Assembly (NCBI RefSeq): GCF_963921235.1
Contig: NC_086097.1
Coordinates: forward strand, 54,004,001-54,068,000
Direction: 5' to 3'
From: Mobula hypostoma
Taxonomy: Eukaryota
DNA: 64,000 nt
The notes under the pieces were generated by a model. It was not told where the DNA came from. It searched no databases and saw only the letters and a list, made by a program, of their open reading frames with translations. A program made the position numbers and the translations under genes. Position 1 is the stretch's first letter; each line of letters begins with the position of its first letter. Of this stretch, positions 23,708-30,934 are shown in pieces.

Positions 23708-25106
23708 CTCCTCCCTACTTAGCTATAAAACTTCTATATATATAAATAGATAGGTAGTATATTATATAATACAACTACTATATAGGCATCCACAGCATGG
23801 TAAATTTTAAATCGTCCCATTCAGGCCTGAAAATTTAATCGCACTGGAGAATTTCTTACTCTTGTGGGATAACGTCTTTCCTGACGGTGGGAAGGGGGTC
23901 AGGGTCACTCAGCTTAGCAGGAGATACTTGTGGCTGTGAAAAAAATCTCAGATTCTGGGGCCTCTTCCATGGTGGTTGTAGGAGTTGACTCTGGTATAAC
24001 AGGAAATGGTTCTGACATCTTTGGATAGATTTCTTCTCTAATAATTGACTCTACTCTGCTCAACTGATCTATATAGTGTCTCCAGATAACATCAGACACA
24101 ATCTTCACTGTGTAGGAGAGTGGTTCAGTTCTGTCCTCAATCTTTCTAAGTACCCACTTTTAATCACCTCTGTAGTCCCTCGCCAGAACTGCTTGTTCAG
24201 GAGTGAAACATGGAACCTCTTTGTTTGAGGAGTCCTCAATTTGTCTCAGCTGTTTGTCCCGCATTTTCCTTCTGAGATTGGGTTTGAGCAGATCCAAGCG
24301 TGAGCTGAAGAGACAACCCAGGAACAGCATGGCTGGTGAGATGTTGGTTATGGAGTGTGCTGCAGTGCAAATGCAAGAAGGAAGTTAGTAAGCTGCTGAC
24401 TCAGTGTCAGTGTAATGTAGCCTGCAGACATTGCTCGCAGTGTGCTCTTTAGACTCTCCCTCTCGCCCCCTCTCCTCCTCCCCCCAAGCCATTCGGAGCT
24501 GGGTGGGGTGGTGCAGATGTAATATGTCATATTCCATTCATTTTCAGGAAAGACTGAAGTGTTACACCACAAAGTGTGGTCCATTGTCACTGACTAAGTA
24601 TACTGGAACACCAGTCCCTGAGAGAGGATTCTCAACACATCAACAATGTGCAAGACTGTACTGGAGACAGTTGCGAGCACTTCTGGCCATTTTGTAGCTG
24701 AATCCACCAACAACTTAGTGCCCATGAATGGTCTGGCAAAATCCACATGAATTCTCCGCCCAGAAAATGCAGGCTATTCTCAGGGATGGAGAGAAGCTGC
24801 TCTTGGCATCTTGACATCCCAAACAGTGCCTGACAAGATGCTTCATCTGCTGATCTATTCCAGGCCATGAGCCAATGCTTCCAGCCAGCACTTTCATTTA
24901 GACCTCGCCTAGATGACTGGCATGTAGCTCTTAAAACACTTCAGCTCTCAGCTTGGATGGCACAACAACTCTCAATCCCCAGGTAAGGCAACCCCTGTCA
25001 AAGACAAGTTCATCCCAGTGTTGGCAGAAATGGGGGAGCTGGCATTTCTGCTGCTCATTCCAGCCATTGTGGACGGCTGTGCAGTCATTTATTTATTTGT
25101 TGAGAT

Positions 25107-25545
25107 CAGTCAGTGGGTGCCGTCCAGAATCCAGGGTTGGCAGCTATGCACCTCCATCTTCTTCGATCTTGCGACAGCACTGAGTACAGCCTCTCCTCCA
25201 GTTTCTTCTTGCTGGCCACCTTGGCACTGCCCGCCGCTGCCCCCGCCGAACTCGAGCCCGAGGCCGTGTCGGCCTCCAGCCACGACCACTTCTTCGAGCT
25301 CGGCCCTTCCTTAGGCGGCGGCCTTGGGCAGGTCCAGGCACACGGTGCAGCGCCCAGGTTCATCATGTCTCTTCTAACTAAGTGCATAACATACGATTCG
25401 TAGATACGTGGTGAGGCTTTAGTCTCTTCCACGGAAGATGGCCGTCGGCTCACAAGGAGCTCATCCACCCTTTATCAGGTCTTGTTTCTTTTTAGTCCTG
25501 CTGAGTGTCCTCACACCCTCCTCACCAGACTAAGTCCGGTGGGGG
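25107..25545 (-). mobile_element. Short non-autonomous RTE-derived element
   Basis: 11-bp TSD tttgttgagat (25096-25106, 25546-25556). RTE-like C-terminus VRRDMMNLG...QDRRRWRCIAANP and actgactg tail on the minus strand. Confidence 0.65.
25174..25351 (-). pseudogene. CYHR1: Circularly permuted fragment of CYHR1/ZFTRAF1-like coding sequence
   Basis: Encodes [10 protein letters not shown] at its 3' end and [11 protein letters not shown] at its 5' end. Joined, they give [21 protein letters not shown], which I recall as the CYHR1 N-terminal motif. Strongly GC/CpG-rich relative to the surroundings. Confidence 0.8.
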
Positions 25546-26696
25546 TTTGTTGAGATATGGCACAGAATAGGCCCCTCTGGCCCTTCATATCACACCTCCC
25601 AGCAATCCCCCAGATAAATCCTAGCCTAATCACAGGACAACTTACAATGACCAATTAACCTACCAACTGGTACGTCTTTGGACTGTGAGAGGAAACAGGA
25701 GCACCCAGAGGAAACCCATGCTGTCACGGGGAGGATGTACAAAACTCCTTACTAGCAGTGATGGGAAAGACCTGATACAGTGTGGAATCCTTTCTGGTTT
25801 CCTTTTGGATCATCTCTGCCATAATAGGGAGGCTTTCGAATTGCATTAGGGAGAACACGTCCAGAGGATCGCCCTCTTTTGTAAAATTTTCAGGTATTTC
25901 CTTTTCCACGGGTAAACGGGACAATCCATCACCATTTCTATGATTAGTTGTCTTCATGAATTCGATCTTGTAACTGTGACCTCCAAGAAACAGGGCCCAT
26001 CTCTGCATTTATGCTGCTGCTGTTAGTGGAACTCCCTTCTGTGGATTGAAAATGGACTCCAGTGGTTGTTGATCAGTAATAAGGGTAAACTCTTTCTCAT
26101 ACAAATACTGGATAAAACATTTTATACCCTCAACCAGGCTGAAGGCCTCTCTGCCAATCCGTGTGTAATTTTTCTCTGCAGTGGTAAGGGAATGTGATAC
26201 AAAGGCATTGGGGCATTCACTTCTGTACTTATAAATGTGATATGACTGCACCTATACCATAAGACGAGGCATCACAGACAAGCTTTACTGGACAATGTGG
26301 ATCAGAATGTCTAAGTACAGTGTCTAACATCACTCTTTCCTTTACCTTTTGAAAAGCTACCTCATGCTTCTTTGTTCATTGCTGTTTCCTCCCAATCTGT
26401 AGTAATGTGTTCAAGTGGGAAACACAGTAGCCTAGTGTGCCAGGAACCTATTATAGTAATTGACCAATCCTAAAAATGACTACAACTGTGACGCATTCTT
26501 TGGCTTTTGGGCATCCACCACCACTTGAATTTTCTCAGCACACTTGTGTAATTCTTGTGCTCAATGATGTGAGCACAGTGATTGATGCCTGGTTTAAAGA
26601 ATTCACACTTGTTACGTCGTGCTCTGAGGCAATATCTTCTAAGCTTTTAATACTGTCTCGACATACAGTCCAAAGGTACGTGAGAAGGGCACCCGC

Positions 26697-27131
26697 ATGG
26701 TCTGTTGCCTCCCGGGTGCCAGGGTCCGGGATGTCTCTGACCGGGTGCACGACATCCTGGTACGAGAGGGAAAGCAACCAGAAGTCGTGATACATGTTGG
26801 GACCAACGACATAGGCAGGAAGAGGGATGAGGTCCTGAAGTGTGAGTTTTGGGAAATAGGCAGAAGGCTGAAGAACAGGACCTCAAGGGTGGTGTTCTCA
26901 GAATTGCTGCCAGTGCTACGTGACAGTGATGGTAAGAATTGGAGGAGATGGCAGTTGAATGCGTGGCTGAGGAGTTGGTGCAGGGAGCAGGGTTTTAGGT
27001 TTTGAGATCATTGGGATCTCTTCTGGGGAAGGTGGGACCTGTACAGATTGGATGGGTTGCACCTGAACTCGAGGGGGAGCAATATCCTTGCAGGTAGGTT
27101 TGCTAGCATGGTTCGGGAGGGTTTAAACTAA
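26697..27131 (+). pseudogene. CR1 ORF1 SGNH/GDSL esterase-like domain, 5'-truncated, internal stop at 27003-27005
   Basis: CLPGARV, IHVGTND, and DGLHLN downstream of the stop in the same frame. Confidence 0.85.
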
Positions 27132-27166
27132 TTTGCGAGGGGTATGGGACCCAGAGCGATAGAGCA

Positions 27167-30049
27167 GTGAAAGAAGTGCATGGAGTAAAGCCAGATCTAA
27201 CATACAGAGAGGCTTTGAGGAAAGAGAAGCAGAATAAACGGTGTAAAGACAGTAAGGTACAAGGACTGAAATGTGTGTACCTCAATGCAAGAAGCATCAG
27301 GAACAAAGGTAATGAACTGAGAGCTTGGATACCTACATGGAATTATGATGTAGTGGCCATTACAGAGACTTGGCTGGCACCAGGGCAGGAATGGATTCTC
27401 AACATTCCTGGATTTCAGTGCTTTAAAAGGGATAGAGAGGGCGGAAAAAGGGGAGGAGGGGTGGCATTACTGATCAGGGATACTATTACAGCTACAGAAA
27501 GGGTGGGTAATGTAGCAGGATCCTCTTTTGAGTCAGTATGGGTGGAAGTCCGGAACAGGAAGGGAGCAGTTACTCTGTTGGGGGTATTCTATAGGCCCCC
27601 TGGTAGCAGCAGAGATACAGAGGAGCAGATTGGGAGGCAGATTTTGGAAAGGTGCAAAAATAACAGGGTTGTTATCATGGGTGACTTTAACTTCCCTAAT
27701 ATTGATTGGCACCTGATTAGTTCCAAGAGTTTAGATGGGGCAGAGTTTGTTAAGTGTGTCCAGGACGGATTCCTGTCACAGTATGTGGACAGGCCGACCA
27801 GGGGGAATGCCATACTAGATCTAGTACGAGGTAATGAACCGGGTCAGGTCACAGATCTCTCAGTGGGTGAGCATCTGGGGGACAGTGACCACCACTCCCT
27901 GGCCTTTAGTATTATCATGGAAAAGGATAGAATCAGAGAGGACAGGAAAATTTTTAATTGGGGAAAGGCAAATTATGAGGCTATAAGGCTAGAACTTGCG
28001 CATGTGAATTGGGATGATGTTTTTGCAGGGAAATGTACTATGGACATGTGGTCGATGTTTAGAGATCTCTTGCGGGATGTGAGGGATAAATTTGTCCCGG
28101 TGAGGAAGATAAAGAATGGTAGGGTGAAGGAACCATGGGTGACAAGTGAGGTGGAAAATCTAGTCAGGTGGAAGAAGGCAGCATACATGAGGTTTAGGAA
28201 GCAAGGATCAGATGGGTCTATTGAGGAATATAGGGTAGCAAGAAAGGAGCTTAAGAAGGGGCTGAGAAGAGCAAGAAGGGGGCATGAGAAGGCCTTGGCA
28301 AGTAGGGTAAAGGAAAACCCCAAGGAATTCTTCAATTATGTGAAGAAAAAAAGGATGACAGGAGTGAAGGTAGGACCGATTAGAGATAAAGGTGGGAAGA
28401 TGTGCCTGGAGGTGAGCGAGGTCCTCAATGAATACTTCTCTTCGGTATTCACCAATGAGAGGGAACTTGATGATGGTGAGGACAATATGAGTGAGGCTGA
28501 TGTTCTGGAGCATGTTGACATTAAGGGAGAGGAGGTGTTGGAGTTGTTAAAATACATTAGGACAGATAAGTCCCCGGGGCCTGACAGAATATTCCCCAGG
28601 CTGCTCCACGAGGCGACAAAAGAGATTGCTGAGCCTCTGGCTAGGATCTTTATGCCCTCGTTGTCCACGGGAATGGTACCAGAGGATTGGAGGGAGGCAA
28701 ATGTTGTCCCCTTGTTCAAAAAAAGTAGTAGGGATAGTCCGGGTAATTATAGACCAGTGAGCCTTACGTCTGTTGTGGGAAAGCTGTTGGAAAAGATTCT
28801 TAGAGACAGAATCTATAGGCGTTTAGAGAATCATGGTCTGATCAGGGACAGTCAGCATGGCTTTGTGAAGGGCAGATCATGTCTAACAAGCCTGATAGAG
28901 TTCTTTGAGGAGGTGACCAGTCATATAGATGAGGATAGTGCAGTGGATGTGATCTATATGGATTTTAGTAAGGCATTTGACAAGGTTCCACACGGTAGGC
29001 TTATTCAGAAAGTCAGAAGGCATGGGATCCTGGGAAGCTTGGCCAGGTGGATTCAGAATTGGCTTGCCTGCAGAAGGCAGAGGGTCGTGGTGGAGGGAGT
29101 ACATTCAGATTGGAGGATTGTGACTCGTGGTGTCCCACAAGGCTCTATTCTGGGACCTCTACTTTTTGTGATTTTTATTAACAACCTGGATGTGGGGGTA
29201 GAAGGGTGGGTTGGCAAGTTTGCAGACGACACAAAGGTTGGTGGTGTTGTAGATAGTGTAGAGGATTGTCAAAGATTGCATACAGACATTGATAGGATGC
29301 AGAAGTGGGCTGAGAAGTGGCAGATGGAGTTCAACCCGGAGAAGTGTGAGGTGGTACACTTTGGAAGGATAAACTCCAAGGCAGAGTACAAAGTAAATGG
29401 CAGGATACTTGGTAGTGTGGAGGAGCAGAGGGATCTCAGGGTACATGTCCACAGATCCCTGAAAGTTGCCTCATAGGTGGATAGGGTAGTTAAGAAATCT
29501 TACAGGGTGTTAGCTTTCATAAGTTGAGGGATAGAGTTTAAGAGTCACGATGTAATGATGTAGCTCTGTAAAACTCTGGTTAGGCCACGCTTGGAGTACT
29601 GTGTCCAGTTCTGGTCACCTCACTGTAGGAAGGTTGTGGAAGCATTGGAAAGGGTACAGAGGAGATTTACCAGGATGCTGCCTGGTTTAGAAAGTATGCA
29701 TTATGATCAGAGATTAAGGGAGCTAGGGCTTTACTCTTTGGAGAGAAGGAGGATGAGAGGAGACATGATAAAGGTGTACAAGATAATACGAGGAATAGAT
29801 AGAGTGGATAGCCAGCGCCTCTTCCCCAGGGCACCACTGCTCAATACAAGAGGACATGGCTTTAAGGTAAGGGGTGGGAAGTTCAAGGGGGATATTAGAG
29901 GAAGGTTTTTTACTCAGAGAGTGGTTGGTGCGTGGAATGCACTGCCTGAGTCAATGGTAGAGGCAGATACACTAATGAAGTTTAAGAGACTACTAGACAG
30001 GTATATGGAGGAATTTAAGGTGGGGACTTATATGGGAGGCAGGGTTTGA
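27167..30049 (+). pseudogene. CR1 ORF2 (APE endonuclease + reverse transcriptase) with in-frame stops clustered near 29474-29563
   Basis: NARS, ITETW, YRPP, GDFN, SDH; YMDFSKAFD, GVPQG, FADD. The C-terminus is ORF 29591..30049 in the same frame. Confidence 0.93.
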
Positions 30050-30934
30050 GGGTCGGCACAACATTGTAGGCCGAAGGGCCTGTACTGCGCTGTACTATTC
30101 TATGTTCTATGTTCTATGAGATTTTGGAGATGTTCCTTGTTGTCGTCATCACTGGTGACAACAATGTCACCCAGGTAACTCTGAGTGCCTGGGCAAACTT
30201 GCAGTACCTGGTCTATCACCTTCTGCCAGAGCCCGGGTGCAGATGCGACTCCAAAATTAGGCTTTTTATGGTAATAAAACCTTTCTAAGTGTTTATGGTG
30301 AGAAAAACTTTAGACTCTTCTTACATTTCCATCTGCAGTTAGGCCTCAGCTAAGTCTACTTAGCTGAAGTGTTTTCCCCCAGAAAGGTTTCCAAAGATAT
30401 CCTCTATACTGGGCAGAGGGTATTGATCTACTTTGAGTATTTGGTTGATGGTGACCTTAAAATCACCAAAGATCCTAACAGGCCCATTCTTCTTGGCTGC
30501 TAGGACCACTGGTGTTGCCTATGGCCTCAACTCAAATTTGGAAAGAATTCTTTAAGCTTCCAAGGGATCTAGCTCACATGATGGTATAAGGAACCAGATG
30601 GGCTTTGTTAAAACTTGGGTGTGGAAATTTCATTGAACACTATTTTAGCCTTGATAAGTTTGAGTTTTCCAAAGCCATCCTTGAACATTGCTGTGGCATC
30701 ATCCAGTACATTTCATAATTCACTTTCAGTTGGCTCTATTGCAGGGAATGTGACATGCAAATAGTGGATGGATCTCCAATCAAGTTGTAGTTGTTTCAGC
30801 CGATCATGACCCCCCGCCCCCAATGCTGGCCCTCCTGTTTTTAGCACCTACTAGCTAAAATTTTCCCAATGTGGTAAAATTTCACTGTTATGAATGTCAT
30901 TCTCACAGAAATTATCTTTTCTCCAGTATACATT

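Follow-up and report, generated by a model that had tools for sequence, protein, structure and literature searches.

A rotated piece of ZFTRAF1 exon 1 inside a LINE-derived retroposon family of Mobula hypostoma

The window, a stretch of 64,000 nucleotides from Mobula hypostoma (contig NC_086097.1, positions 54,004,001 to 54,068,000), carries one 5'-truncated copy of a non-autonomous retroposon on its minus strand, at 25107-25545. Within that copy, at window 25174-25351 on the same strand, sit 178 bases of exon 1 of a host gene, ZFTRAF1/CYHR1, in two pieces that have swapped places. The rotation is real and exact. It did not happen in the window copy; the rotated order goes back to a single old event in the element that founded a family of about 1,000 copies. 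Our favoured account, to which we give a probability of roughly 0.45, is that a putative circle, once opened, was captured in that founder by the reverse transcriptase of a LINE.

The rotation came to our attention through a sequence-only reading, which claimed an exact circular permutation of 178 bp and a CYHR1/ZFTRAF1 source. Both claims held. By blastn against the source locus (L013), the fragment falls into two pieces (Table 1), the 138 bases of A and the 40 of B, which abut directly in the gene in the order A then B and stand in the window in the order B then A, with a gap of 0 and an overlap of 0. The family consensus, which takes away the private mutations of single copies, agrees with the gene at 175 of the 178 bases. 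Two of the three differences alter residues that are conserved in the proteins of relatives and therefore arose in the founder. The two TGG codons of the window copy had been put down to CpG decay, in keeping with the consensus, which has C at both sites (in 42/55 and 36/55 copies). No product of more than one turn was found, the native A-B joint turning up, at exact-match sensitivity, in the gene alone. When the window's rotated frame was used in a protein search, none of the 573 candidates reached E<=10.

Table 1. The window copy and its target-site duplications, listed in the element's reading direction (window coordinates)
Feature	Positions	Strand	Remarks
Target-site duplication, 5' side	25546-25556		11 bp; the same 11 bases stand on both sides of the copy
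RTE-type LINE 5' part: end of 5' UTR and first codons	25352-25545	-	84% identity with gaps to the full-length LINE L104; also matches the majority of 20 LINE 5' loci
Piece B	25312-25351	-	Later 40 bases of the fragment; 95% identity to L013 by blastn
Piece A	25174-25311	-	Earlier 138 bases of the fragment; 92% identity to L013 by blastn; consensus 136/138
RTE-type LINE extreme 3' end: last codons, stop and ACTG-repeat tail	25107-25173	-	Consensus 3' end equals the majority of 12 LINE 3' ends
Target-site duplication, 3' side	25096-25106		11 bp; its first base could also belong to the tail

The sequence-only reading had also proposed comparing the fragment with its gene in this genome, and that comparison gave a single exonic source in native order: the A-B pattern has one match, at G000:C5:228091026, and its control has 0. 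The locus has an ATG and a GT donor along with 109 codons, and its translation matches ZFTRAF1/CYHR1 proteins, the best matches (E 1e-39 to 5e-22) being to a sawfish, two skates, a catshark and a chimaera. Downstream on that strand come the three coding blocks that follow in the gene, at distances of about 91, 154 and 157 kb and with 95-97% identity to the sawfish protein; they were the only three matches among 15 scored candidates. Exon 2 is absent from the 70 kb below exon 1 and lies about 91 kb from it, which gives the gene a first intron of about 91 kb (G000:C5:228091002 to 227999891). Long first introns have been noted for mRNA/LINE-1 chimeras (PMC13174262). Within 80 kb around exon 1 there is no LINE and no copy of the family.

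What the window holds once, the genome holds many times over. All 40 scored candidates (of 919) match the 178-base stretch over at least 175 of its 178 bases, at 92-100% identity and on many contigs. The motif that spans the closure has 375 exact matches on both strands, with 0 for its control, and among the matches listed (100 of 375) it is spread over five contigs. Of 29 copies picked on the 5' part, 11 contain the closure motif, which puts the family at about 990 copies; 3 of 14 copies picked on a mutated base put it at about 1,750. Among the sequencing runs listed, 20 of 24 contain part of the element and none contains half of its words; they come under 8 coded organism labels and one metagenome label, include no RNA record, and say nothing about species range, expression or the joints. 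Copy number excludes an assembly artefact as an account of the rotation, a possibility that the sequence-only reading had itself raised. Taken together with a private insertion at the window site, for which the target duplication would have to enclose the 178 bases and not, as it does, the whole element, that explanation has a negligible chance of being right.

The family consensus, built from 55 copies, is about 570 bases long and reads LINE 5' part, B, A and the last 68 bases of the LINE. Copies diverge from it by 2.9% at non-CpG sites and by 19% at CpG sites. Every one of 30 loci picked on the 5' part contains exon sequence, with both pieces detected in 29, and 5' truncation is seen in all 12 copies chosen by their exon part, each of which runs through to the 3' end. 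Target duplications of 9-13 bp accompany many other copies, although these are automatic calls and not all are reliable. Target duplications and 5' truncation are features of target-primed reverse transcription, and the family has both. A search of the literature on the family, or on edited retroposon masters, brought up nothing on point; Repbase and Dfam lay outside that search, and the family may be catalogued.

One curiosity of the consensus is a frame of 93 codons (consensus 293-574, window 25106-25471) that opens at what is likely the first ATG of the LINE, closes at the LINE stop codon, reads piece A in its native frame and is open in 20/55 copies. Without the family's loss of 10 bases it would end at the closure after 28 codons. 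The open frame is either a one-in-three coincidence or reflects selection for a master that is translated as far as the 3' end.

The arrival of the element in the window was an unremarkable affair. A circle re-inserted at this site had been suggested; what we find is the ordinary target-primed insertion of a retroposon of some 1,000 copies, its 11-bp duplication flanking the whole element. The window copy begins at consensus position 136, the foot of a hairpin that opens the full-length members of the family, so the hairpin itself is missing here. Its LINE 5' part carries losses of 7 and 10 bases that are specific to the family. Eleven other loci align to the window from 25106 over 283-440 bases, 7 of them as far as 25545. 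One relative, L003 (G000:C1:52501413), lies only 1.5 Mb from the window and has in common with it 11 of the 22 differences of the window copy from the consensus (7/11 of those at non-CpG sites); the next-best copy has 5. The two probably come from one source copy, and their flanks differ.

The neighbourhood has a history of its own. Its site of insertion was an older short repeat, at the A/T-rich end (window 25546-25764 and 25084-25095); this repeat is 71-83% identical to pieces of five other loci and may resemble the HE1-type SINEs of sharks. Around it, at window 23856-26251 and 30100-30309 on the minus strand and 26643-30049 on the plus strand, the broken relic of an LTR retrotransposon, with integrase zinc finger, RNase H and reverse transcriptase pieces, is interrupted by the retroposon nest and by a LINE with an endonuclease-reverse transcriptase frame of 789 codons. 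An Rfam scan of 24900-25900, a span that lies clear of the 5' hairpin of full-length copies, gave 0 matches at E<=1.

The partner that lent the element its two ends is a LINE. Its 3' end occurs without the insert motif at 171 places, and among the matches listed (100) it is mostly preceded by one other upstream sequence, the end of the LINE's reading frame. A full-length example, L104, is about 3.3 kb long with a single frame, a reverse transcriptase domain (PF00078, E 2.9e-28) and a weak endonuclease match (E 0.026). From motifs and layout we provisionally take it to be of the RTE type. Both ends of the short element are common to L104, whose 5' region has matches of almost the whole query length at some 30 of 40 scored places. 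With the majority of 20 LINE 5' loci as the reference, consensus 106-316 shows 92.7% identity (with gaps); the last 68 bases, with their ACTG repeats, equal the majority of 12 LINE 3' ends. Missing in between is the LINE's interior, about 2.9 kb from roughly 2605 to 5513 of L104. Two groups of full-length LINEs (L114 and L133; L122, L125 and L127) carry different leaders ahead of their shared 5' end, which looks as though new 5' leaders had been acquired by the LINE more than once.

Three joints tie host and LINE together, and all three are blunt when judged against the majority of the 20 LINE 5' loci, the 12 LINE 3' ends and the gene. A 2-base overlap at the 5' joint, seen when L104 alone is the yardstick, proved private to L104 and was dropped. 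We looked for a form of the element from before the capture. Sixteen of 23 matches chosen to differ after the 5' joint were fetched, and 16/16 carry an exon piece; among the matches listed (100 of the 171 3' ends that lack the insert motif), none is preceded by the family's 5' part. With neither an insert-free sibling nor an insert-free 3' end joined to the 5' part, deletion of the LINE interior and capture of the exon look simultaneous. The founder shows other jumps and slips as well, namely losses of 98, 7 and 10 bases and a fold-back on itself, and all parts of the element stand in the RNA sense. Parts in RNA sense, a deletion and a capture made at once and a founder given to slipping favour capture of the opened circle by the LINE enzyme.

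Much hangs on the closure, which lies between 25312 and 25311 (CTA/AGG) with 0 bases of microhomology. A closed circle that is cut once, and whose product is taken in whole, is expected to leave just such an exact abutment at the opening point. In 6/6 RNA folds of the exon that point falls in a hairpin loop, a weak result in favour of the circle. The sequence-only reading had seen a ccgccg microhomology at about 25314-25322. This did not survive: the closure is elsewhere, and the repeat needs a base present in 2/55 copies, the window copy and L003. A direct repeat of 2-15 bp at the fragment ends is likewise absent (0 bases), and an overlap of 3 bases arises at the ends only on the assumption that 2 bases were lost later.

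That reading had a DNA microcircle in mind, and part of its case stands. The size, the high GC (68%, with a CpG observed/expected of 0.93) and the origin of the fragment in a single exonic CpG-island locus are as described for microDNA; the junction microhomology is absent. In its full form the explanation would have end joining close a nucleosome-sized DNA circle from the CpG-island exon, which was then cut, or copied, a single time and used to patch a broken LINE in place of the interior, after which the chimera spread as a retroposon. The order B before A is an accepted mark of circular DNA intermediates (PMC7450558), 178 is near the size peak of about 200 bp (PMC5587290), and about half of microDNA closures are blunt (PMC5591271). 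The length, the CpG-island source and the blunt closure, fitting DNA microcircles as they do, count against the capture of an RNA. But the patching would demand three base-exact joints and a separate 2.9-kb deletion, no 2-15-bp repeat marks the ends, no insert-free short element has been found that could have served as the acceptor, and the sense orientation of the fragment and its end 4 bases from a splice donor would be left unexplained. We consider it fairly unlikely, and the captured circle more likely to have been RNA than DNA.

The sequence-only reading had named splice sites at the internal junction as a sign of circular RNA. Exon-exon back-splicing does not account for the closure as it stands: the 3' limit of piece B stops 4 bases short of the gene's exon-1 donor, and the other end lies inside exon 1. 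An RNA circle would consequently require either closure by some non-spliceosomal route or a later loss of 2 bases. The second of these can be spelled out as a back-splice from the exon-1 donor to a cryptic AG in exon 1, which would give a circle of 180 bases from whose joint the founder later lost two. The left end does start with AG, the right end is only those 4 bases from the donor, moving it 2 bases further on would give the 3 bases of overlap, and the founder was prone to deletions, the shorter form being the one that leaves the frame open to the LINE's stop. Against this, the cryptic acceptor has no pyrimidine tract and an extra, unobserved change is required. Nor does any copy preserve the longer closure: a spacer of 11-14 bases was found in 0 copies, as against 375 matches when 10-14 were allowed, and among the matches listed (100 of 375) the short form is present in 100/100. 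Back-splicing is in our view a very unlikely origin.

A rotated order need not involve a circle at all. Reverse transcriptase on a linear, looped ZFTRAF1 RNA could copy 138 bases, slip back downstream, copy 40 more up to the start of its own cDNA and return to the LINE RNA. Collision with its own cDNA would give zero gap and zero overlap without any covalent circle, the founder made several other jumps, and reverse transcription through open-ended structured RNA can yield non-colinear joints, a warning sounded in PMC4897178. There is even a 4-bp inverted repeat immediately outside both ends of the fragment, as found by chance in 0.7% of 57,630 end pairs. Yet folding of the exon does not predict that these ends pair. 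In whole-exon folds the pairing probability of the inverted repeat is 0 in 5/6 windows and 0.12 in the shortest, a point against the captured circle as well, and a stem joining the fragment ends, which we had entertained as a candidate, is predicted under neither RNA nor DNA parameters. A linear template would also call for two internal landings in place of jumps to free ends, and a clean stop at its own cDNA is unexpected when R2-type enzymes displace annealed strands (PMC4117753). We regard the circle-free route as unlikely. Capture of an opened circle has a weakness here too, for the template jumping that it calls on is documented for R2, which belongs to a clade other than that of the partner LINE.

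The other end of the element tells a second story. In full-length copies the first segment repeats the following one in inverted form, and the two fold into about 55 base pairs of duplex (consensus 5-134; in copy L038 the fold at L038:1476-1612 has a z of -5.8). ADAR converts A to I in double-stranded RNA, which reverse transcription turns into strand-specific A-to-G changes, and an A that follows a 5' G is edited less. In the duplex a parental A has become G at 15/23 sites, against 0/102 elsewhere in the element (Fisher p 5e-14). Counted on the transcript strand against the LINE, the ratio of A>G to T>C in the duplex is 15:0, with 12 sites in the sense arm and 3 in the inverted arm. The opposite arm keeps its T at 13/13 mirrored sites (10 sense-arm, 3 inverted-arm), which places the changes later than the fold-back and on one strand only. 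LINE copies with the hairpin blocks (9 and 17 carriers) have A at the changed sites with nearly no exception. A sixteenth site was dropped as the LINE is C/T polymorphic there. An A after a 5' G changed in 5/11 cases, as against 10/11 otherwise, a difference that is only suggestive (p 0.06). DNA mutation is strand-symmetric, and a one-stranded pattern fits A-to-I editing fixed by reverse transcription. The hairpin changes are thus likely to be ADAR hyper-editing frozen into DNA in the founder.

Editing would seem to have preceded the spread of the family. At non-CpG edited sites, A is found in at most 2 of the 16-46 copies covering the site, and this near-absence makes an edited master the ancestor of every copy sampled. 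The unedited arm, when searched for, gave 2 matches, both of them ordinary copies with an edited sense arm. Of the 12 copies chosen by their exon part, 8 begin within the hairpin. One copy, L144 (G000:C55:50488498), has in its inverted arm the LINE state at 3 sites that are changed in the consensus, and is either an early branch or a case of chance reversion.

Putting the pieces together, the following could have taken place. In one germline event the LINE enzyme would first have copied 68 bases of LINE RNA, then jumped to the 3' end of the opened circle and copied it end to end, which amounts to exactly one turn, before jumping back onto the 5' part of the LINE RNA. A fold-back would have created the duplex of about 55 bp at the 5' end, and ADAR would have hyper-edited the transcript. 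Reverse transcription would have fixed the edits, and from the edited master all sampled copies would derive, with LINE protein acting in trans. In its most complete form, then, our proposal is that an RNA circle from a first exon, closed by some means other than the spliceosome, was opened a single time, captured in full and carried to about 1,000 sites by a master hyper-edited by ADAR, the consensus being a fossil of both events. We put this full chain forward tentatively, and with more doubt than confidence.

Why should any of this matter? The family would provide a base-exact, heritable record of a putative tiny circle-like intermediate from a coding exon in the germline, one that is readable only thanks to the multiplication of the retroposon. 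It bears on the question of whether circles of under 200 bases, be they microDNA or circular RNA, become inherited sequence. The hairpin, for its part, indicates ADAR editing of a retroposon RNA that was written into DNA and founded a whole family, and its mirrored arm is an internal control of a kind rarely available. There are practical consequences too. With about 1,000 near-copies of a conserved coding exon in the genome, ZFTRAF1 can be misannotated and reads can be mismapped, and the copies, if transcribed, would supply antisense or small RNAs directed at ZFTRAF1.

Several known systems have something of this family in them. With microDNA, as described in PMC5587290 and PMC5591271, it has in common the size class and the GC-rich, exonic CpG-island source; it differs in having no terminal direct repeat and in that its present copies spread by retrotransposition. 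Set against what a re-integrated microDNA should look like, a length of 100-400 bp, a unique exonic or CpG-island source and a rotated order are all found, whereas a direct repeat at the ends and integration at the window site are not. Duplications through circular DNA intermediates (human cSDPs and cattle translocations; PMC7450558) show an equally exact B-A flip, their joints being blunt or nearly so, but those are large segmental duplications in two copies and ours is a matter of 178 bases in a multiplied mobile element. In the LINE-1/mRNA and U6/LINE-1 chimeras of PMC13174262 the host piece is 5' and colinear; here it is internal and rotated, and founded a family. Another comparison is with the pseudogenes derived from circular RNA, such as the 33 mouse circRFWD2 copies (PMC4897178), which are likewise multi-copy, associated with retrotransposons, without poly(A) and made of non-colinear host exon. 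Their joint is an exon-exon back-splice site, whereas our family has both ends within exon 1, is carried by a LINE derivative and numbers about 1,000 copies. The nearest kin are the bipartite non-autonomous derivatives of RTE elements (Bov-A, RTESINE1/2 and WALLSI3), which have the same build (PMC5786205 and PMC7245038), a piece of the 5' UTR joined to the extreme 3' end with its microsatellite tail, the interior deleted and movement provided in trans. They differ from our family in having a small-RNA head where ours has a fold-back on itself with A-to-G clusters, and in lacking a rotated piece of a protein-coding host exon between the LINE ends. The family is a variant of these bipartite RTE elements and not a plain member, set apart by the 178 host bases that it carries between its ends.
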